Shown here one piece after another: positions 1 to 54,889 of a DNA stretch of 64,000 nt. The first letter of the stretch is position 1, and each line of letters starts with the position of its first letter. The notes below the pieces were generated by a model that made no database searches, had not been told where the DNA came from, and was given only the letters and a program-made list of their open reading frames with translations. The DNA is from Escherichia phage PHB11, in the sequence record MK524176.1; one strand, written 5' to 3'. The position numbers were made by a program, and so were the translations under genes.

Positions 1-735
1 TCTTTAAAATTAACTTGTTAGCTCTTGTTGGTCATCTGTTAAGCCTCTGTAAAGACTATTCAGCACTTGTTAGAAATCTGTTAAGCTCTTGTTAGTTCTG
101 TTAAGAAACTGTTAAGACCTCTGAAGAGATGTTAAGAGGATGTAGTAGCTGTTAAGAGATTGTTAAGGATATTTTAAAATTTTGCAAAGGGATGGTAAGG
201 GAGCTGTTAAGGGCTACCAAGCAGATATACATCCTAGACAGATATTTTTCAGTTCCTTCAAAGACCCTAAAAAACGACTTGATAGTCCTATTTTATAAAA
301 ATTTTAAAATTCTGAATAATTACCTAGACAGTCTTTTAAAAATACAGGCATAAACAGGCTTATAAGATACCTTGTTAGTACCGTGTTAGACCTTGTGAGA
401 TAAGGTCTGTAAAGATATTCCTGTTAAGTTTGTTAAAACAGTCTATATAGAGGCTTAGTAATACCTAGTGAACACCTATAGAGGGTAACATAGCTGACAT
501 AATGGGTTACTGTTAAGTAACACAGATAACCTAGAGATTAAGAGGTGTATAGGGGCTTCTAAGAGGGTGTAGAGTAATGGTTAAGGTGATTGTATAGGTT
601 GTTAAGAAGGCTTGTTAGAAGAGTGTTTAGAAGGGTTATACAGAGGGGCTATTAAGACCACTAGATAGATACTAAGATACTATATAGTACTATATAACTA
701 TATATAGAGAGTAAGCTTAAGAAGGTTGTTAAGAA
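1..735. repeat. Iteron-like array: about 12 TGTTAAG and 7 TTGTTAG heptamers, all in the same orientation, in an ORF-free region (window edge; may extend upstream)
   Basis: Direct reading: TGTTAAG at about 38,79,99,109,130,149,160,203,421,510,600,727; TTGTTAG-type at about 15,67,89,371,383,611,625. No ORF of 60 aa or more on either strand. Confidence 0.7.
676..708. repeat. Three ACTATATA copies at 10-bp spacing (AT-rich, DUE-like)
   Basis: ACTATATA at 679, 689 and 698, next to the heptamer array. Confidence 0.55.
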
Positions 736-800: not shown

Positions 801-830
801 AAATTAAAAAGCCCCCCAATTAAGGAGGCT
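801..830 (-). terminator. Rho-independent terminator after the 842..1435 gene
   Basis: Minus-strand reading AGCCTCC-TTAATT-GGGGGGCT (one G-U) followed by TTTTT. Confidence 0.5.
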
Positions 831-841
831 CTTAAGATATT

Positions 842-1435
842 TTAAATCAATGTTTCCAGAACTGTCTTCAGTGATGACTTGGTTGTCTGATAAAAATGAG
901 TGAATCCATTGTTGTTATCGAATACTTGCATCATGATGTCATCTCCCTTGACTGGGTACACTCGGATATCATAGTGAAAACCATTAAAGACACAAGAACC
1001 ACTACAGAATGCTCTAAAGTCATCCACTGAGATATACTCTTCATGTCCTGTGATTTTTATACAAACACCTTTACTCGGTCTCTTAGGGTTGATATCTTCC
1101 ATCACAGACATATTCTGTCCACCAAGAGATACCATAGTGACCACTTTACGGTTCTTCTGTTTAAAGTACATCTTAACTTTCTGTAAAGTATCTTCATAGA
1201 ACGGATAAGACTTCTCTACAAAGATTCCTTCAAGTGGCTCTTTACCATTTCTAACTTCTCTGATATGACGTACTGAGAAGATAAGTTGCTCTAGTATGTC
1301 AAGGCTTTCTTTAGATAGTGCTTCCCGAACATCAGCCAAATCAAGGACTAGGTAGTTGCCTTCAACTTCTTTCAAGTTATCTTTTTCCATAGCTATCACA
1401 CCATTATCGTAAAACTTGGTAATCCGGTACTGCAA
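842..1435 (-). CDS. Hypothetical protein (may be the C-terminal part of one gene with 1404..1718, or start at an internal ATG near 1390)
   Basis: 197-aa ORF; the ORF-track start is TTG; an internal ATG with a GGTG SD-like sequence lies at about 1390. Confidence 0.45.
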   Translation of the reverse strand: MQYRITKFYDNGVIAMEKDNLKEVEGNYLVLDLADVREALSKESLDILEQLIFSVRHIREVRNGKEPLEGIFVEKSYPFYEDTLQKVKMYFKQKNRKVVTMVSLGGQNMSVMEDINPKRPSKGVCIKITGHEEYISVDDFRAFCSGSCVFNGFHYDIRVYPVKGDDIMMQVFDNNNGFTHFYQTTKSSLKTVLETLI

Positions 1436-16324: not shown

Positions 16325-16525
16325 ATGAGTGAGAACGTTTATAAAGAACTTTATGAAGCTAATAAGAAGCTAGAATTTATGCAGAACACTATCATGGCAA
16401 TTGCAGATAGATTGTCTGTAGCAACAGGTATTGATATTAAAGAGGCATCTATGGATGCACTTCTTGATGCTGTTGATGCAAAGTTCGAAGTTAAGAAAGA
16501 AGAGACTGCTACAGACTCTGAATAA
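16325..16525 (+). CDS. Hypothetical small protein (possible terminase small subunit by position)
   Basis: 66-aa ORF, GGAG RBS, directly upstream of terminase large subunit. Confidence 0.45.
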   Translation: MSENVYKELYEANKKLEFMQNTIMAIADRLSVATGIDIKEASMDALLDAVDAKFEVKKEETATDSE

Positions 16526-16546
16526 TTCTATTTGCGGAGGTGCTTA

Positions 16547-18148
16547 ATGGACTTAAATGCTGTTAAGCAGAAGCGAGTGGAAGACGTTAGGAAAGTCCTA
16601 GCTGGAGAGTTGGGGCTTTCTGATGAAGTAAAAGAAATTATCAAATCATTCGGTAAAGACCCCTCTAAATTCCTTCCAACTCAAATTCTGACTTTATTAA
16701 GATACACACCAGACCAAGTTAGACTTATCTTCAAATTGATGACTGATAAGAACTATGTAGCCCCTCAGCCGGGTTCTCAAGAGGTCTTTTTAAATACTAA
16801 TGCTGACTTGGTTTTATATGGTGGTGCTGCTGGTGCTGGTAAAACTGCTGCATTGTTAATGGACTCTTTAAGGTTTATTGAAGACCCTAACTATAATGCT
16901 GTATATTTCCGTCGAAATACAACACAGTTACAAGGTGGTTTATGGCCTGCTGCAAAGAAACTATTTGGTAAGTTTGGTGGGGTTCCTCACGAGCAGAAGA
17001 TGACTATCACATTTCCTTCTGGGGCAACTATCAAGTTCACCTACCTAGAACTTGAAAAGCACGCTGAAGGTCATCAGGGTATTGAATACTCAGCTATCTA
17101 CTTTGACGAAGGTACACACTTCTCTGCTTCACAGATTTCATACCTACAGACCCGTCTACGTTCTGGTGCTGAAGGTGACTCATACATGAAGATTTCTATG
17201 AACCCAGACAGGGACCACTTCATTTATGATTGGGTAGAACCCTTCTTAGATGAAGAAGGTTACCCAGACCCTGAGAAGTGCGGTCGTATTCGTTGGTATG
17301 TTATGAATGATGGTGTGATGGTTTCTGATTGGGAAAGAGACAAGATTCTTGAAATGTTCCCTCTTGAGATTCCTCAGACATACACCTTCATCTCTGGTAC
17401 GATTGATGATAACCCAATTCTTGACTTCTTAGAACCTAAATATCGTGGTAAGTTGGAAAACAACACACCTGTAAACGTTGCAAGACTTCGTTTCGGTAAC
17501 TGGAAGGCTCGTGCAGAAGGTTCAAACTATTGGCAAAGACAATGGTGTGAGATTGTTGATTCACTCCCAGAAGATGTGTTTGATGTCAGAGCATGGGACT
17601 TAGCAGCGACTTTACCATCTGAAATTAACCCTAACCCAGACTGGACAGCGGGTGTTAAGATGGGTAAATCTAAAAAAGACGGTTGCTATTATATCATTGA
17701 TGTAGTAAGATTTAGAGATAGACCCTCTGGAGTCGAAACACAAATTAATTTGACTGCTGAAAGTGACGGTAAGCGAACTGGTATTTTTATCCCTCAAGAC
17801 CCAGGCGCTGCTGGTAAATCCTATGCAACATCCCTCATCAGGAAACTTGCCGAGAAAGGTTATCGCGCAAGAGCTAAACCAACAAATAAAGATAAAGTTA
17901 CCCGCTTTGCGGGATTTTCTGCTGCTTCTGAAGCTGGACTTGTAAAAGTCTTGAGAGGTAGTTGGAACGAAGCTTACTTCCAAGAACTTGAAGGTTTTTG
18001 TGGTGACGGCAAAACTAAAGATGACCAAGTGGATGCTACCAGTGATGCTTTCAACAGTCTTAATGAAGTTAAATTATTCAAGCCACCATCAATGGGTGCT
18101 CACACAGACTTAGTGAGAGGAAACCCATACGAGGGGCTTAGACGTTGA
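16547..18148 (+). CDS. Terminase large subunit
   Basis: Walker A-like LYGGAAGAGKT; about 530 aa; start moved to ATG 16547 (GGAGGTG RBS) from the upstream TTG of the ORF track. Confidence 0.75.
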   Translation: MDLNAVKQKRVEDVRKVLAGELGLSDEVKEIIKSFGKDPSKFLPTQILTLLRYTPDQVRLIFKLMTDKNYVAPQPGSQEVFLNTNADLVLYGGAAGAGKTAALLMDSLRFIEDPNYNAVYFRRNTTQLQGGLWPAAKKLFGKFGGVPHEQKMTITFPSGATIKFTYLELEKHAEGHQGIEYSAIYFDEGTHFSASQISYLQTRLRSGAEGDSYMKISMNPDRDHFIYDWVEPFLDEEGYPDPEKCGRIRWYVMNDGVMVSDWERDKILEMFPLEIPQTYTFISGTIDDNPILDFLEPKYRGKLENNTPVNVARLRFGNWKARAEGSNYWQRQWCEIVDSLPEDVFDVRAWDLAATLPSEINPNPDWTAGVKMGKSKKDGCYYIIDVVRFRDRPSGVETQINLTAESDGKRTGIFIPQDPGAAGKSYATSLIRKLAEKGYRARAKPTNKDKVTRFAGFSAASEAGLVKVLRGSWNEAYFQELEGFCGDGKTKDDQVDATSDAFNSLNEVKLFKPPSMGAHTDLVRGNPYEGLRR

Positions 18149-39474: not shown

Positions 39475-39672
39475 ATGCCTACAATCCTAGCAATTCTTCT
39501 AAAAAATCTAGGTAGCTTCTTCTGGAAACTCATTTTATCCCTTCTAAGTGAATACATGATTGAGAAAGTGTTCTTTAGGCTTGCAAGATACCTTGCGAGT
39601 AAAACAGACACACCTATTGATGATGAGTTCGTAGATAACTTAGAAAAAGCTTTTAAGGGGGAGAATAAATGA
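39475..39672 (+). CDS. Small membrane protein
   Basis: 65-aa ORF with hydrophobic N-terminus. Confidence 0.4.
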   Translation: MPTILAILLKNLGSFFWKLILSLLSEYMIEKVFFRLARYLASKTDTPIDDEFVDNLEKAFKGENK

Positions 39673-40040
39673 AGTGGCTAGAGGAAGCTTTTAAAAATAA
39701 TATTGGTGCAATTGTAGTTGGTATTTTTAGTGTTATTGGGATGTACACCACCATGCAAGTTTCGGATGGTAAACAAGAAGTGTCTATCACAACAAAGTTA
39801 CAGCAGTTAGATAATTATTCCAAAAGTAATTATTCAGCTATTCGTGATTTACAGTCTGATATGAGGCTGCTTCAGCTAGGGATGGAGAACCAGAAAGTCC
39901 AGTTAGAGAATGTTAAGGGTGAGAACGCAAAACTTACTAAGACTCTTGATAAATTCTCTGATAGTGTAAACAATCTGGCTCAATCAGTATCAGCCCTCCA
40001 AGCTATTACTGAAAAGAACACAAAGAATACTGAAAAGTAA
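39669..40040 (+). CDS. Membrane-anchored coiled-coil protein
   Basis: 123-aa ORF: N-terminal TM (IGAIVVGIFSVIGMY) followed by a helical region. Confidence 0.45.
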   Translation: MKWLEEAFKNNIGAIVVGIFSVIGMYTTMQVSDGKQEVSITTKLQQLDNYSKSNYSAIRDLQSDMRLLQLGMENQKVQLENVKGENAKLTKTLDKFSDSVNNLAQSVSALQAITEKNTKNTEK

Positions 40041-47191: not shown

Positions 47192-47707
47192 TCAACTTAG
47201 TTTTGCAAACTCTCCGTGGAGTTTTATCGCAGCTTCACAGTAAGCTTTATGGGCCTCTTCTTCTGTTGTGTACGTCCCGATATGTATAGTCTTACCATTA
47301 TGGCTAATCTGGGCTTTCCACTTACCAGACTTACTTCTACTTGTACCTTTTAAGTTTTTTGATGTTCTAGGTTGCCTCCTATTAGACATGTTCTGTTCTT
47401 TTGTGGCCTCTCTAAGATTGTCCCAAGCATTATTCAAACCGTTCCCGTCTTTGTGGTCAATATGATTGTCAGGCCACTTACCTGTCATCCAGAACCAAGC
47501 AATTCGGTGATTGCCTGTCCTGTATCCTAAAATCTGGGTTTGCATATACACACCAGACCTTGTGCGCTTGATTGTACCAGCCTGTCTTCCAATCACCACC
47601 CTACTGCTATGTGGAGGTCTGCCAATCCAAGTCAAGACCCCTGTTTCGGGGTCGTAGTCTAACCAAGATTTTAACTGTTCATGTGTGAATCCACAATCTC
47701 TCATCAA
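47192..47707 (-). CDS. HNH homing endonuclease with C-terminal AP2-like DNA-binding domain
   Basis: IDHKDGNGLNNAWDNLREATKEQN HNH motif; C-terminal GKWKAQISHNGKTIHIGTYTTEEEAHKAY AP2-like; start overlaps DNA polymerase stop. Confidence 0.7.
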   Translation of the reverse strand: MMRDCGFTHEQLKSWLDYDPETGVLTWIGRPPHSSRVVIGRQAGTIKRTRSGVYMQTQILGYRTGNHRIAWFWMTGKWPDNHIDHKDGNGLNNAWDNLREATKEQNMSNRRQPRTSKNLKGTSRSKSGKWKAQISHNGKTIHIGTYTTEEEAHKAYCEAAIKLHGEFAKLS

Positions 47708-50433
47708 TGTACCTCATACCACGATTTACCAACCTTACCAGTACCTGTAACAAGTGTTTCTTTCTTTAGTCCTAAGTTTTTAGAAGCTTGTCCATAATAC
47801 CAATCAGTGACAGCTTTCACCTCTGCCGTCATACTTTCTGGGCATTCCCAACTCGTCTCATCGTGATAGGAGCACAATAAACGAGCACCTATAGCTGGTT
47901 TGCGACCGTTTAACTTCATCAAACCTTCGTCAATCATACGACGACAAGCGAGGTTAATTGCTTCATTCTGAATCTGGCTTTCCGAACCCATGAGCAAATA
48001 ATTCAATAACTTATGTGGAGATTTACACCACAACCAAGCTCCAGCAACCTTTACAAAACCCCCTTTAGAGATTGCAGCAGTCTTACCAAACACCTCTTCA
48101 AGTGCCTTTTTAGTCGCTTTGTAGTCAGCTTCCAAGTCATCTAGTAGCTTCTTAATCTTAGGCAAACGGATAAAGTAAGTCTGTTTAGTCAGTGCACCTT
48201 CCTGAGTAGTTGCAGCTTTAATTGTCTTAGCAAACTTCTCATCACCTGCACCAAACAGTAGTGCATAGATACCATTCTTAGCTTTCTTACGACCCTTGCT
48301 AATCTCATGAAGAAGGTTCTCATCCTGAGTAGCTCGACAAGTCAAGATATCCTGCTCATCATTCAAGCTAAAGTAAATACTATTCAGTGTGTGTGCATCA
48401 GTCCCTGAATAGACAACGTAAAGGTCATTCTCAGAGTCATAACGCAGATACTTGTCAACTTCTGGGTTAAGGTACTCATCAAAATGTTTGCAGTAATAGC
48501 GTCCATCTTCTTGACGAATAAACTCAATCTCTTCTTTACCTTGCGTTACCGCTTTGGTGAAGTCTTTGTCACCCATAAAGTTACAAAGGAGAACTAGCTG
48601 GGCTGAGTTCATGTCTACAGAGACAACGTTAGTACCTTCTTCACAAATCCACACTGCCCTCATTGGCTCACCGTAAACAGCAGCACCAGAAGGTACGTTT
48701 ACAATACCATACTGAGTCATACGTCCAGTAGAAGTACCAAACACCATTGCACCAGCACTAAGGCGACCATCAGGACGAATCTGGTTCAACCAACCTTTTT
48801 CATCATCTTTTGAGTTCTCAATAGTTCTGCGTCGGTGCATCAAAGTATAGTATTTAGCAATCTTCTGTCCAAGCTCACCTTCAATCGTATCATAAGATGA
48901 TTCAGTAAGTTTTGGTGAAGTACGGATTAAGCAAGGCTCAAGCAAATCTGTGTACTTCTTCACAGACCAGTTATGCTCAATGTACTGGACACCTTCGTGT
49001 TCAACATAACTCAAGCCACATCGTTCAACCATCTCCTGCCACTTAGGATGCTTTGTAATCATCTTTTTGTTGTCTTTGAAACGACAAACTTTGACAGGAC
49101 GACCGTCAGAGTCTTTCTTGTAGTTCCAGTCATCTGGAATCCAACCAACTGATTTCAAGTAATCTTTAACAACTGCTACCTGAGTCATACGAGAAACTTC
49201 GAACTCAATTGGTGTATATGGTGCATCAATCAAACCTGTGTAGCGACTTGACTCAAGCTCAAAGTGGTTAACGACATGGCTGTTATAGTACTTCACAGTT
49301 TTAACTGTTTTTACTGGCTTCCAGTCTTTGCACTTCTTACCAATCTTTGCATTCAACTCATTGCAAATTGCACGAGCATCCTTCATTGCTACAAAACCTT
49401 CCTTGTACTCTTCACCAGTTACAGAGTTGGTTGGTGTATAGCAATTCCGCTTTTCAATGTTAAAAATCTTTGTAGTTGGCTTACCAAATGGCTTGATTTC
49501 GTATGTCTGCATCTCACCGTTACGTACCTGTTGACGATACTTTGTCTTAGGGTACTTGGTAATTCTCTTCAGTCCATCTGCATGACCGAATGCTTCAACA
49601 TACTCATTCCAAGCTTTTGCAAACTCTTCTCCAGTGACTTTACCTTTGGTCTTAATAGTTGGAGGAAGATGTGGTTCAACCTCTGAAGCAAGCTCATTAG
49701 TCAACTTGTCAAGTTCCTTTACATGGAACTCCATAAGCTCTTTATCAGCTTTCCAACCATTGATAGCTTGTTGACTCATCCAGAAAGATGTTTCTTTAGC
49801 TCGCATATAGGTTTCATAGGTATCTATGCCACACTTCTTTAGCTTGAGATATTCATTATCCAGTGCACGTTTAGTTTTGGCGTTAATACGGATATCTTCT
49901 ACAACACGAGTGAAGATTTCTGCATTCCACACACCCCAATGTTCAATCTCTGGTTTACGTACACCAACACGAGCACCCCATGCTGCCAAGCCATGAGCAC
50001 CTTTATAGCCCTTTGGAGTTGGTCTATCCATCCACTGAACACGAGACTGGATAAGAGAATCCTGAAAGAAATTACTCCACGGCTTACACTTTGGATTATC
50101 AAAGTTCCACAAATCAGGTGCAATGTGATTGAAAACCCACCAGTCATATCCCAGACCATTATGGATGCAAAGTCGTTTTGCCTTTAACGCAAACTCAACA
50201 CCTTCACGCAAGCCACCCTTAATGTACTTGGTATACTTGTGACCGAGGATAGGCTCATCTGTAAAGACCCATACAGGTGGCTCTTCATCGTCAGATTTAT
50301 AGTCTGCGAAAGCCATTACGTGCACTTTAGTGAACTCAAGGAGTAAACCATCAGTTTCTGTATCACCAACTAAATGTAAGTTTTTAAAATCTACGTTTTC
50401 CATTTTTACTCCCTCTAAAATCATTAACCCCAT
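47704..50433 (-). CDS. DNA polymerase, family A, with 3'-5' exonuclease domain
   Basis: 909 aa; exo motif LVGDTETDGL; polymerase motifs VSVDMNSAQLVLL (A-like), KNGIYALLFGAG (B-like), SYHDE (C). Confidence 0.8.
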   Translation of the reverse strand: MGLMILEGVKMENVDFKNLHLVGDTETDGLLLEFTKVHVMAFADYKSDDEEPPVWVFTDEPILGHKYTKYIKGGLREGVEFALKAKRLCIHNGLGYDWWVFNHIAPDLWNFDNPKCKPWSNFFQDSLIQSRVQWMDRPTPKGYKGAHGLAAWGARVGVRKPEIEHWGVWNAEIFTRVVEDIRINAKTKRALDNEYLKLKKCGIDTYETYMRAKETSFWMSQQAINGWKADKELMEFHVKELDKLTNELASEVEPHLPPTIKTKGKVTGEEFAKAWNEYVEAFGHADGLKRITKYPKTKYRQQVRNGEMQTYEIKPFGKPTTKIFNIEKRNCYTPTNSVTGEEYKEGFVAMKDARAICNELNAKIGKKCKDWKPVKTVKTVKYYNSHVVNHFELESSRYTGLIDAPYTPIEFEVSRMTQVAVVKDYLKSVGWIPDDWNYKKDSDGRPVKVCRFKDNKKMITKHPKWQEMVERCGLSYVEHEGVQYIEHNWSVKKYTDLLEPCLIRTSPKLTESSYDTIEGELGQKIAKYYTLMHRRRTIENSKDDEKGWLNQIRPDGRLSAGAMVFGTSTGRMTQYGIVNVPSGAAVYGEPMRAVWICEEGTNVVSVDMNSAQLVLLCNFMGDKDFTKAVTQGKEEIEFIRQEDGRYYCKHFDEYLNPEVDKYLRYDSENDLYVVYSGTDAHTLNSIYFSLNDEQDILTCRATQDENLLHEISKGRKKAKNGIYALLFGAGDEKFAKTIKAATTQEGALTKQTYFIRLPKIKKLLDDLEADYKATKKALEEVFGKTAAISKGGFVKVAGAWLWCKSPHKLLNYLLMGSESQIQNEAINLACRRMIDEGLMKLNGRKPAIGARLLCSYHDETSWECPESMTAEVKAVTDWYYGQASKNLGLKKETLVTGTGKVGKSWYEVH

Positions 50434-50487: not shown

Positions 50488-50660
50488 TAATCTTTGCGAA
50501 GTGGGTTTTTACTTAAAAGGTTACTTAACAGTTTAACTATACAGATACTTTAAAACTCTTAAAAGATTATTTAATAGCTTTTAAAAAGCTTTAAAGTATA
50601 ACGTATAGAATACGTTAAGATAAAAGATTAAAACTTAATAGTTACTTAAAAGAGGCTTAC

Positions 50661-51083
50661 ATGCAGAAAATGTTTGTTCACCCAGACATAGCTGACTTTG
50701 TTAGAGCTTTGCAGAAGTTGGAAGAACTTGACATTGCTGCTCAACGGGAATATGCTCACCATCACAGGAGAATGGTTGATATACAACATGAAATAGAGTT
50801 GTCTGAAAACTATGAAGATGACTTAAAATGCTCTGTGTTTGAGCATATGAAAGATGTTGCTACAGCGAGACGTAAAGCTAAAGACACAGTTGCTTTACTA
50901 GATTCTCTTAAAAAGAGGTTGCAAAGTGGTACAGACCTGTGTAATCTAGCGTCACTGATTAACGATGTTGAAACTTCTTGGGATAGGCATTACTATCCAC
51001 GTTCTGAAAAGACACTTGACTTTTCTTCATCTGAAAACTTAAAATGTTCTAGAAAGAAACTTAACCAACTGAGAGAGAAATAA
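50661..51083 (+). CDS. Hypothetical protein
   Basis: 140-aa ORF, AAGAGG RBS. Confidence 0.5.
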   Translation: MQKMFVHPDIADFVRALQKLEELDIAAQREYAHHHRRMVDIQHEIELSENYEDDLKCSVFEHMKDVATARRKAKDTVALLDSLKKRLQSGTDLCNLASLINDVETSWDRHYYPRSEKTLDFSSSENLKCSRKKLNQLREK

Positions 51084-52710: not shown

Positions 52711-52911
52711 ATGAAGATGAGAGTAAAAGATAATTTTAAAGTTATTGACCATCGTTTAGTGGAACTCTCATCTCTTTCCAATGAGGTAATGATTGAACGT
52801 CTTAAGAGAGTTGAATCACGAAGGAAAGAGATTGCAGATGAAATTCATGAACTGGACAAGATTGAAAACGGATTGAAGGCAGAACTACAACGAAGAGGTG
52901 CTAATGTCTAA
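52711..52911 (+). CDS. Hypothetical coiled-coil protein
   Basis: 66-aa ORF. Confidence 0.4.
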   Translation: MKMRVKDNFKVIDHRLVELSSLSNEVMIERLKRVESRRKEIADEIHELDKIENGLKAELQRRGANV

Positions 52912-54889
52912 AGGTCGTAAATTGAAAGAGGCTGGTCAGTTTATTGGTCATTGTGCATGTCCACGTTGTGGTTCATCAGATGCTGGTTCAATCTACCATC
53001 ATGACGATGATTCTTATTCGATGACTTGCTTTAGCTGTAACAAAGGTTTCCCAGAGTGGGATTTTGATAAAGGACAAATCGTGAGCACTTATTCTACTGG
53101 TTCAGATAATAAAAACCGTACTTTCCGTGGAATGGATTTAGACGATGTAAAAGAAAACCTAGAAGCAATGGACTTGAAAGACAGGAAGATTCCTGCAAAA
53201 GTTCTTGAACGCTTAGGTATCAAGGTTGACATTGACAGTGACGGCGAAATTGACGCACATTTCTATCCAACTTACAAACGTAATGAAGATGGTAAGCTAG
53301 AGCACGTCGGTTATCGTGTACGTCACCGTTACCCAGAAGACCACCCAAAAGAACATCTACGCGGTAAGTTAAAAGACTTTTCAGGTGGTGTTGGGGACAT
53401 TAAAGGTGAACTGGCAATGTTCGGTTCATGGATTGCTCCAGAAGGCGGTAACCGTCTATTCATTTGGGAAGGTGAGATGGAATGTGCCACAGCAATCTAC
53501 ATGACTTCTCTGGCGATTAAAGATAAGTCTCGTCGTAAGAATTACTGTCACGTATCTGTTCCATCAGGTGCAAACATTAAGTCTATCAAAGACAACTATC
53601 AGTACATTACATCATTTGATGAGATTTACTTGTGCTTTGATAACGATGAAGCAGGTGCTAAAGCTACCAAAGAAGCTGCTGGTATCCTACCTATTGAAAA
53701 GGTTCGTTTATTCCAGTATCCAGAAGGTGTAAAAGACCTTAACGAATGGTGGACAAAGTTCTATAAAGAGAAAGACACAGTTCTGGAAGGATTTAAACAG
53801 CGTATCTACAACGCACCTCGTTACTGCCCTGCTGGTATCAAGAACTTCGCAGATGGTTTTGAGGCAATGAAGAATCGTGGTCAGATTCCATTGATTCCTT
53901 TCCCAGAATCTTTCGGGGATTTGAACAGGTTGACTTATGGTGGTTACGGTTTAGGTGAGATTACAACTCTGGCAGCACCATCTTCAGTAGGTAAATCAGC
54001 ATATACCCGTGAAATGATTTACACTGCTTGGAAGGAAACCGATTATAATATTGGTGTAATTCCTGTAGAAGATACCTATGAAGAGTTGATGGAGATGCTC
54101 TGTGCAATTCATCTAAGCAAGCAGATTTCTGAGATTCCTTATGATGAACGTGATTGGGATGAATTGAAGGAAGCACACGCAGAACTATCTAAAGGTCGTC
54201 GTATCCATATCGTTGACCATCAAGGGGCAATTGACCAAGATAACCTACTGGAATTTGTTGACTATCTTGTTAACAGTTTAGACTGTAAGATTATTATTCT
54301 TGACCCTATCACGTTAGCTCTGTCACGTTCAGATACGGATGAAGAGGAAGTTTTGTCTGAGCTATTGCGTCGTTGCAAACGCTACCAGTATGCACAGGTA
54401 AACGTATGTCACGTTCGTAAGAGTGCAGGTGGTCAGAAAGCTAACTCTGAAGGTGGAGATATCTCTGAAGAGGATATTAAGGGTTCTGGTGCATACTTCC
54501 AGATTTCCATGAACAACATTCTGTTAATGCGTAACAAGGTTGACCCAGACCCTGTTAAGAAAAACTTGACAAAAATCAAGTTAACTAAGTGTCGTCGTCA
54601 TGGTAAGTCAACAGGTATTGCTGGTCATACTTGGTACAATCCAGATACAGGACGTCTTATCAAAGCTTCTGGATGTGGTGTTGACATTGATGGTGCAGCA
54701 GAAAATATTCGTCAACAGTTTGGCATTGGTGAAGCTGAAGACCATTATGATGACTCTTTACCTCATTATGAGGATGAAGTGTTTGACCGTGAGACTGGTG
54801 AAGTCTATACTGAAGAACAGCGTCAAAGCTCAACGATTCCGCCTGTATTAAGTGAGGATGCAGATGACTGCCCGTTTGAAACTGAGTGA
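52904..54889 (+). CDS. DNA primase-helicase (T7 gp4-like)
   Basis: N-terminal zinc ribbon (CPRCGS ... CFSCNKGF), central region, C-terminal DnaB-like helicase Walker A (SSVGKSAY); ATG 52904 with AAGAGGTG RBS. Confidence 0.75.
   Translation: MSKGRKLKEAGQFIGHCACPRCGSSDAGSIYHHDDDSYSMTCFSCNKGFPEWDFDKGQIVSTYSTGSDNKNRTFRGMDLDDVKENLEAMDLKDRKIPAKVLERLGIKVDIDSDGEIDAHFYPTYKRNEDGKLEHVGYRVRHRYPEDHPKEHLRGKLKDFSGGVGDIKGELAMFGSWIAPEGGNRLFIWEGEMECATAIYMTSLAIKDKSRRKNYCHVSVPSGANIKSIKDNYQYITSFDEIYLCFDNDEAGAKATKEAAGILPIEKVRLFQYPEGVKDLNEWWTKFYKEKDTVLEGFKQRIYNAPRYCPAGIKNFADGFEAMKNRGQIPLIPFPESFGDLNRLTYGGYGLGEITTLAAPSSVGKSAYTREMIYTAWKETDYNIGVIPVEDTYEELMEMLCAIHLSKQISEIPYDERDWDELKEAHAELSKGRRIHIVDHQGAIDQDNLLEFVDYLVNSLDCKIIILDPITLALSRSDTDEEEVLSELLRRCKRYQYAQVNVCHVRKSAGGQKANSEGGDISEEDIKGSGAYFQISMNNILLMRNKVDPDPVKKNLTKIKLTKCRRHGKSTGIAGHTWYNPDTGRLIKASGCGVDIDGAAENIRQQFGIGEAEDHYDDSLPHYEDEVFDRETGEVYTEEQRQSSTIPPVLSEDADDCPFETE

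Follow-up and report, generated by a model that had tools for sequence, protein, structure and literature searches.

The first 218 bp of the DNA analysed here, a 64-kb stretch (the window) of the ~88-kb genome of Escherichia phage PHB11, correspond by alignment to the left copy of a Felix O1-like direct terminal repeat (DTR), of which they cover the inner third, and carry a dense array of the heptamer TGTTAAG and its close variants. The array lies on a single strand, is phased with the DNA helix, stops in its phased form at the inner boundary of the repeat, and is conserved together with that boundary across genera. On balance, we consider it probable that this is a putative protein-binding array, which would organize the concatemer junction for cutting and packaging by the terminase. 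The DTR itself is already known for Felix O1-like phages, and the array adds another case to a known type of feature rather than representing a new one; the conserved phased heptamers and an 11-mer at the boundary appear undescribed.

Genomic setting and position of the terminal repeat

The window belongs to the genus Felixounavirus (Felix O1-like myoviruses): its first 3 kb match 255 related records, among which SME50 is 96.6% identical over this length. The first ~363 bp of the genome and its right end lie outside the window. Relatives whose genomes were assembled as circles have a gene-free region of ~1.6 kb in all, which separates two convergent gene blocks, with terminators on both sides. 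In the window, a gene-free unique spacer (219-840) runs from the DTR to the terminator that closes the first leftward operon; this terminator is also annotated in wV8 and Mordin.

The original prediction, made from the bare sequence, held that the region contains no ORF of 60 aa or more, and indeed no conserved ORF was found. A 53-aa ORF at 192-353, annotated in some relatives across the DTR boundary, was rejected as a gene: it is not conserved, and its start codon is lost or stops lie inside it in Pr103Blw, skuden, wV8, CHB7, and Roscha1. The neighboring minus-strand genes had also been described as an early cluster, a label that is unsupported because the matching minus-strand block in the SME50 annotation includes lysin and tail genes. 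In an Rfam scan of positions 1-1500 (E<=1), known RNAs were absent, with one sub-threshold Phe_leader match over the terminator, and no convincing sigma-70 promoter was found in the region. Promoter or operator roles are unlikely, since the operons on either side are transcribed toward the region and each is closed by a terminator. The features discussed below are as follows, in order along the window (a slash between positions or sequences marks a cut).

1-218, plus strand: inner part of the DTR, as judged by homology; the full DTR is ~580-620 bp long and starts ~363 bp to the left of the window.
15-211, plus strand: phased array of 11 TGTTA(A/G) copies, with a dense core at 68-167 and degenerate units at about 27, 121, 141, and 193.
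167-190, plus strand: conserved block GATATTTTAAAATTTTGCAAAGG, nearly invariant in four genera, located after the dense array and before the last heptamer.
205-231, plus strand: inner boundary of the DTR and inferred cleavage site, made up of the last heptamer and GGCTACC (205-218), the cut at 218/219, and AAGCAGATATACA (219-231).
232-360, no strand: AT-rich unique spacer, with GC of ~25% at 241-390 and small AT palindromes at 289-341.
372-389, plus strand: CTTGTTAGTACCGTGTTAG, a doublet of heptamers spaced 11 bp apart, at 153 and 164 bp inward of the boundary.
422-733, plus strand: six scattered TGTTAA copies (422, 431, 511, 600, 613, and 727), unphased and no better conserved than their surroundings.
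678-706, no strand: ACTATATA units at 679, 689, and 697, with a TRF period of 8.
807-833, minus strand: intrinsic terminator, an 11-bp stem followed by a T run, at the end of the leftward gene block.
842-1435, minus strand: last gene of the leftward block, from the ORF listing.

Several studies have described terminal repeats in this group of phages. In UAB_Phi87, a DTR of 608 bp was determined by Bal31 digestion and run-off sequencing (PMC4837284), and PhageTerm yielded DTRs of 581 bp in Pr103Blw (PMC8303462) and 613 bp in Ro111lw (PMC6454146). Short terminal repeats had also been inferred in the Felix O1 genome paper, with genome size as the basis (PMC3185647), and the large terminase (TerL) of the Felix O1-like group clusters with DTR-type terminases (PMC4837284).

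The sequence records agree with these reports. In Pr103Blw, the initial and final 581 bp of the record are identical, and in Ro111lw the same is true of the 613 bp at either end. The Pr103Blw record, which starts at the physical left end and has its DTR annotated at 1-581, contains window position 1 at its position 364. Both repeats end in ...TGTTAAGGGCTACC and are followed by AAGCAGATATAC; this end aligns to window 218/219, which is why window 1-218 is assigned to the inner third of the left DTR. In UAB_69, studied in another laboratory, a DTR of 618 bp is annotated, both ends of which fall within 2 nt of those of Pr103Blw and Ro111lw.

The same boundary, GGCTACC/AAGCAGATATAC, is present at window 212-230. 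It includes an 11-mer, AGCAGATATAC, that is invariant in 14 of 14 sequences (13 relatives and the window) from four genera. This 11-mer starts 2 nt past the DTR end in both PhageTerm-defined repeats, and the annotated DTR of UAB_69 ends on its first base. At the outer end, the DTR starts with GCCCCCTTAACA, and this boundary is conserved too, with ...TTA before the cut and GCC(C/A)C after it. On the virion DNA, the right end has the sequence ...TGTTAAGGGCTACC, and the left end reads ...TGTTAAGGGGGC on the complementary strand. Because the heptamer copies at the outer end are inverted, a heptamer followed by GGG points at each of the two cuts.

A packaging or terminal-repeat region had been named in the original prediction as an alternative to an origin, and it is this alternative that the alignments sustain: positions 1-218 fall in an experimentally defined Felix O1-like DTR, and the phased array ends at its cleavage boundary. 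As regards position, the region is thus part of a terminal redundancy, a finding which, if coupled with a lack of protein binding, the prediction had itself counted against its reading.

Composition, phasing, and conservation of the array

The density of heptamers in this region is far above that of the rest of the window. About 19 plus-strand copies had been predicted in positions 1-735, a figure that holds for the core TGTTA(A/G) (19 copies); exact matches number 17, namely 12 of TGTTAAG and 5 of TTGTTAG, all on the plus strand. Over the whole window, TGTTAAG occurs 42 times vs. 16.6 +/- 4.4 in dinucleotide-preserving shuffles, and TTGTTAG, with 13 copies vs. 16 expected, is not enriched. 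Inside the DTR, the core starts at 16, 37, 68, 79, 90, 99, 110, 130, 150, 161, and 205, and beyond it at 373, 384, 422, 431, 511, 600, 613, and 727. Positions 1-840 therefore hold 19 copies on the plus strand and none on the minus strand, vs. 0.74 expected (Poisson P (>=19) = 1.5e-20). Expressed as density, this is 22.6 copies per kb in the region and 50.5 per kb in 1-218, against a background of 0.89 per kb per strand. The check proposed for the array, a count of the heptamer elsewhere, thus came out in its favor over the window, where any other 200 bp contain at most 3 copies vs. 11 here.

Two finer points of the predicted repeat structure stood in part. The extension of the heptamer to TGTTAAGA is common, but a following (G/A)G is inconsistent. 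Likewise, the three ACTATATA units are present, but their spacing is 10 and 8 bp rather than a regular 10 bp. Within this stretch, positions 678-689 form a perfect 12-bp palindrome, TACTATATAGTA, and a related sequence, CTATATAG, is found at 442-449.

In positions 1-218, the heptamers are in phase with the helical repeat, with a coherence of R=0.87-0.89 at a period of 10.33-10.5 bp that was reached by 0 of 5000 random placements. The start of the window truncates the array, which in complete genomes runs ~363 bp further to the left. From the physical left end, the DTR begins with GCCCC and about three inverted copies (CTTAACA) 11 bp apart; these are followed by four or five direct copies, also 11 bp apart, then by four more direct copies in the middle of the DTR, and finally by the dense inner array (window 16-205) and the boundary. 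Each DTR contains 18-20 direct TGTTAR copies and 3-4 inverted ones. Outside it, the inner flank (219-840) has eight unphased copies, and the 457-bp gene-free flank to the left of the right DTR copy, taken from Pr103Blw, has no heptamer on either strand. Where the DTRs of close relatives differ in length, they do so mainly by insertions or deletions of 11 and 22 nt, the size of one and two repeat units.

Conservation was assessed in the 13 relatives, which represent four genera of the Ounavirinae: Felixounavirus, Suspvirus, Mooglevirus, and Kolesnikvirus, the last of which infects Erwinia. In the first three genera alike, heptamers are found at -130, -121, -110, -90, -70, -59, and -15 from the boundary. 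In Kolesnikvirus, the array is kept but is ~11 bp off register, and the boundary-adjacent heptamer at -15 is missing. Inside the DTR, heptamer columns share 0.85-0.90 identity with the three other genera, vs. 0.59-0.64 for spacers (permutation p<1e-4). In the unique part, the corresponding values are 0.47 for heptamer columns vs. 0.61 for the whole, with the exception of the doublet at 372-389, which is found in the same place in Felixounavirus and Mooglevirus, is shifted by an insertion in Suspvirus, and has a comparable pair in Kolesnikvirus. The 678-706 stretch is conserved in Felixounavirus, Suspvirus, and Mooglevirus, and not in Kolesnikvirus. In distant genera, the dense array and boundary (107-231) are the only part of 1-840 still detected by BLAST. 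This pattern, in which motifs are kept and spacers drift, suggests that the heptamers inside the DTR, along with the boundary, are under selection, and argues against neutral slippage.

Further afield, the left end of PaP1, a distant relative in the genus Pakpunavirus, contains no such array, and its DTR contains genes. From this comparison of sequences, the array appears specific to the Ounavirinae.

Proposed role in packaging and competing explanations

Phages with exact short DTRs package their DNA from concatemers with one DTR copy per junction, as has been established for T7 and T3. Since only one copy is available per junction, the terminase must recognize the junction and cut both DTR boundaries while the repeat is being duplicated. 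The heptamers of the DTR, which lie on one helix face and point to the inner boundary, could serve as head-to-tail sites for a phage DNA-recognition protein, putatively of the small-terminase-like or winged-helix kind. By coating and bending the concatemer junction, such a protein would form a bent nucleoprotein complex that positions the large terminase (T4-type, encoded at 16532-18148 and followed by the portal gene) for a cut at 218/219, beside the invariant AAGCAGATATAC, and the inverted copies at the outer end of the DTR would do the same job for the outer cut. The array would then provide the recognition element of a pac-like site, in the manner of pacB and pacC of T3 and T7. We infer this role in recognition from the confinement of the heptamers to the DTR and its inner flank, their direction toward the cut, their position on one face of the helix, and their conservation together with the cut sequence.

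More tentatively, and with less confidence than in a packaging role as such, the phased array and the inverted outer copies can be proposed to form a complete code that sets both cuts and is read by a small, putative protein binding head to tail; in this code, a heptamer followed by GGG may be placed beside each cut in mirror orientation.

Some observations stand against the packaging reading. Heptamers are also present in 219-840, where they are mostly unphased and unconserved, and the Kolesnikvirus boundary has no heptamer adjacent to it. In addition, DTR packaging as such does not need an array, since the DTR of PaP1 carries none. With regard to the binder, ORF and domain searches recognized no small terminase in this phage, and a 66-aa ORF at 16325-16525, upstream of TerL, matched nothing in Pfam or the PDB. 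The PDB likewise yielded no sequence match for TerL, which has an N-terminal extension of ~95 residues; a single-sequence AlphaFold model of its first 105 aa had a pLDDT of 45 and was unusable.

A less likely explanation, which nevertheless fits the layout of the repeats, is that a phage or host protein unrelated to the terminase coats both genome ends as an architectural array; its roles could be protection from exonucleases, control of ejection, pairing of DTRs for concatemer formation, or insulation of the convergent operons. Host regulators of the OmpR/PhoB family, which have a winged helix, would be candidates. Members of this family bind direct repeats of 6-7 bp on an 11-bp period, and the half-site of PhoP, (T/G)GTTTA, resembles TGTTAA. 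The head-to-tail 7-bp repeats here, with a period of ~10.4-11 bp and on a single helical face, would suit such a protein; their core is strongly conserved, and their location in the DTR would put the array at both ends of the virion DNA. However, the array is closely tied to the invariant boundary and has inverted copies at the outer cut, both of which speak for a part in end formation itself. As for a host factor, the hosts concerned (Escherichia, Salmonella, Citrobacter, and Erwinia) differ, yet the heptamer is identical throughout, so that a phage-encoded reader is the simpler explanation.

The original prediction gave first place to a replication origin, in which an initiator binds the heptamers as iterons and the adjacent AT-rich DNA (232-360 and 650-710) melts. 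This reading found no specific support, and we regard it as improbable. It is true that the region is gene-free and combines direct repeats with AT-rich DNA (GC ~25%), and that the secondary origins of T7 lie near both genome ends, beside its heptamer arrays; the annotations of the T7 record include the phiOL and phiOR promoters. However, what is conserved is a core of 7 bp that recurs every 10-11 bp between drifting spacers, not an iteron of 17-22 bp. The ORFs that flank the gene-free region are not initiator-like either: on both sides they have no Pfam match, their PHROGs are all of unknown function, and no Rep-, O-, or DnaA-like initiator was found among them. Origin signals in the region amount to one DnaA box with one mismatch, at 747; an IHF consensus is absent. 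In the alignment, the AT-rich segments differ between genera by indels, as is the case for the spacer at 232-360, and they are not the AT maximum of the window: GC is ~25% at 241-390 and 651-750, equal or lower values are found elsewhere, and the minimum (18-21%) is at 50.49-50.68 kb, in the gap from which PolA and the primase-helicase block diverge. In addition, it is within the DTR that the array is conserved and phased, and this part of it goes no further than the DTR boundary. Finally, the replication genes of the phage include a T7-like PolA (47704-50433, minus strand) and a primase-helicase (52898-54889), and replisomes of this kind, which are classically started from transcripts, would not be expected to start from iterons.

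It is very unlikely that the array has a purely structural role, with phased TTAA and TGTT steps providing curved or flexible DNA that aids processing of the junction without any specific binder. A period equal to the helical repeat (10.33-10.5 bp) and main indels of 11 and 22 nt, which preserve the phase, are what such a role would predict. However, curvature tolerates many sequences, whereas exact TGTTAAG is kept in four genera while the spacers drift, and the strict orientation of the copies, reversed at the outer end, suggests that the sequence is read directionally.

The weakest explanation, a functionless expansion of tandem repeats by replication slippage in gene-free DNA, would account for the units of 11 and 22 nt gained or lost between close relatives and for the scattered, poorly conserved copies of the unique part, but it is hardly credible for a DTR array that is in register in three genera, retained in the fourth, and conserved above its spacers (p<1e-4), next to another gene-free DTR flank without a single copy.

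Practical value and comparison with known systems

Felix O1-like phages are widely used in typing, biocontrol, and therapy directed at Salmonella and E. coli, and their genomes are often deposited with arbitrary starts. The inner boundary GGCTACC/AAGCAGATATAC and the outer end GCCCCCTTAACA provide a sequence rule by which the physical ends can be located in any Ounavirinae assembly. For the present phage, the predicted ends of the virion DNA are GCCCCCTTAACA... and ...GGGCTACC. The conserved, phased, and directional array inside the DTR is also a candidate packaging recognition signal for the group. In the searchable literature, the existence and length of the DTR are reported, and the array, its phasing, and the boundary 11-mer are not described; a text search for TGTTAAG returned primer sequences only. 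Two elements that could have been taken for the same feature were set aside: the "heptanucleotide" of a Kuravirus paper is a frameshift site, and the repeats of a PAK_P1 paper are 41-nt promoter repeats.

Among the nearest known counterparts are the Felix O1-like DTRs themselves (UAB_Phi87, Ro111lw, Pr103Blw, and UAB_69), to the inner end of which window 1-218 is homologous, with an identical boundary sequence. In iteron origins, such as lambda ori and plasmid oriV, direct repeats of one orientation lie beside AT-rich DNA, as they do here. However, iterons are 17-22 bp long and are located beside or inside the initiator gene, whereas the repeats described here have a 7-bp core on a 10-11 bp period, coincide with the DTR, and have no initiator nearby.

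Short repeats near a terminase cut are known from other packaging systems, including the TGATCA/G hexamers that flank the cut in P1 pac, pacL and pacR of SPP1, and the R sites of lambda cosB. In these systems, the repeats by the cut are thought or known to bind the small terminase and to bend the DNA, as is proposed for the heptamers. However, P1, SPP1, and lambda use headful or cos packaging, while the present phage probably has an exact DTR and, with ~20 repeats per DTR, many more sites. In addition, the P1 hexamers carry Dam sites, whereas TGTTAAG has no GATC.

The closest analogue is T7, in which a heptamer of single orientation is repeated many times within a short exact DTR and next to it, at a gene-poor concatemer junction. 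In the T7 record (NC_001604), CCTAAAG is found at 17, 41, and 60 inside the 160-bp DTR, at least eight times in exact form at 175-340, and again at 39,620-39,710 before the right DTR, with no copy in the opposite orientation. Dunn and Studier reportedly named these short-repeat arrays SRL and SRR in 1983; to our knowledge, their function was never established. The T7 class II pause signal, ATCTGTT, is also present at the end of the T7 DTR, and its overlap with the heptamers at 33-43 and 75-85 of the window was treated as coincidence. No T7-like RNA polymerase was found among the seven ORFs scanned of the twelve of at least 380 aa, and we know of none encoded by Felix O1.

Like T7, the present phages have a one-orientation heptamer about ten times or more at a short exact DTR, with 18-20 copies per DTR and 8 in the inner flank; unlike in T7, where arrays lie on both unique flanks, the 457-bp flank of Pr103Blw is empty. 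The heptamer itself differs, as does its spacing, which is mostly 13 bp in T7 and a helical 10-11 bp here. The T7 arrays are mainly outside the DTR and on both sides of it, while those of Felix O1-like phages are mainly inside it, with one flank and inverted outer copies. Moreover, T7 is a podovirus with its own RNA polymerase, and the phage described here is an unrelated myovirus. The array can thus be placed alongside the T7 heptamer arrays as a second, independent example. If it is indeed the complete code for both cuts proposed above, the definition and duplication of exact short terminal repeats could be conveniently studied in Felix O1-like phages, which would also shed indirect light on the role of the heptamer arrays of T7.

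Ends and length of the terminal repeat

The two ends of the direct terminal repeat (DTR) form an imperfect inverted repeat, with the outer end taken from Pr103Blw (L001) and the inner end from the PHB11 window:

L001 1-14: DTR outer end, TAGCCC(CC)TTAACA
Window 205-218: DTR inner end, TGTTAAGGGCTA

Kolesnikvirus lacks this inverted relation, which is present in Felixounavirus, Suspvirus and Mooglevirus. The annotated boundaries of the PhageTerm records and of UAB_69 lie 2 nt apart on each side, an offset that could reflect either staggered cuts or differences in method. The length of the repeat also varies, and the gap between the 581-bp DTR of Pr103Blw and the 613-bp DTR of Ro111lw is due to indels of 11, 1 and 22 nt, of which the first and last correspond to one and two repeat periods.

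Annotated genes and short motifs in the gene-free region

In several GenBank records, small CDSs labeled "hypothetical protein" occupy the DTR and its boundary region (SME50_089, UAB69_gp027, UAB69_gp028, and GEC_vB_NS7). These are probably annotation artefacts, because the CDS that corresponds to window 192-353 (plus strand) crosses the DTR boundary and is not conserved as an ORF. The name "DNA helicase" given to an 83-aa ORF that adjoins the gene-free region in Salmonella phage ST-3 (L013 866-1117, QGF21882.1) is probably spurious, since its positional counterpart in SME50 matches no Pfam family.

The palindrome CTATATAG makes up another motif family, located at window 442-449 and 678-706, which includes the perfect 12-bp palindrome TACTATATAGTA at 678-689. 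This family is kept in three genera and is absent as a conserved element from Kolesnikvirus. GGGCTAT/TATAGAGG motifs are also present in the gene-free region.

Candidate sites for DNA recognition and replication

No recognizable small terminase is present, and DNA recognition could therefore be provided either by the N-terminal extension of the large terminase (TerL), in which about 95 residues precede the Terminase_6N domain, or by the small ORF directly upstream:

16325-16525: 66-aa ORF, phrog_4397
16532-16820: N-terminus of TerL

Positions 50491-50680 have the highest AT content of the whole window (GC 18-25%). As a candidate origin, or as a candidate site of divergent early promoters, this stretch is more conventional than 1-735. 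The GC skew switches sign there, and the stretch lies in a gap from which the genes on either side diverge:

47704-50433, minus: PolA gene, left of the gap
52898-54889, plus: primase-helicase, in the plus-strand block right of the gap

Resemblance to T7

Two heptamers, at window 33-43 and 75-85, read ATCTGTTAAG, which contains ATCTGTT, the class II pause signal of T7 RNA polymerase. This match is probably a coincidence, because no T7-like RNA polymerase was found among the seven large ORFs scanned, out of the 12 of at least 380 aa in the window. In T7 itself, the class II pause signal (L015 161-167) falls precisely where the DTR ends on its inner side. In addition, the CTNTAAAG motif of the gene-free region (47-54 and 406-413) is reminiscent of T7's CCTAAAG.
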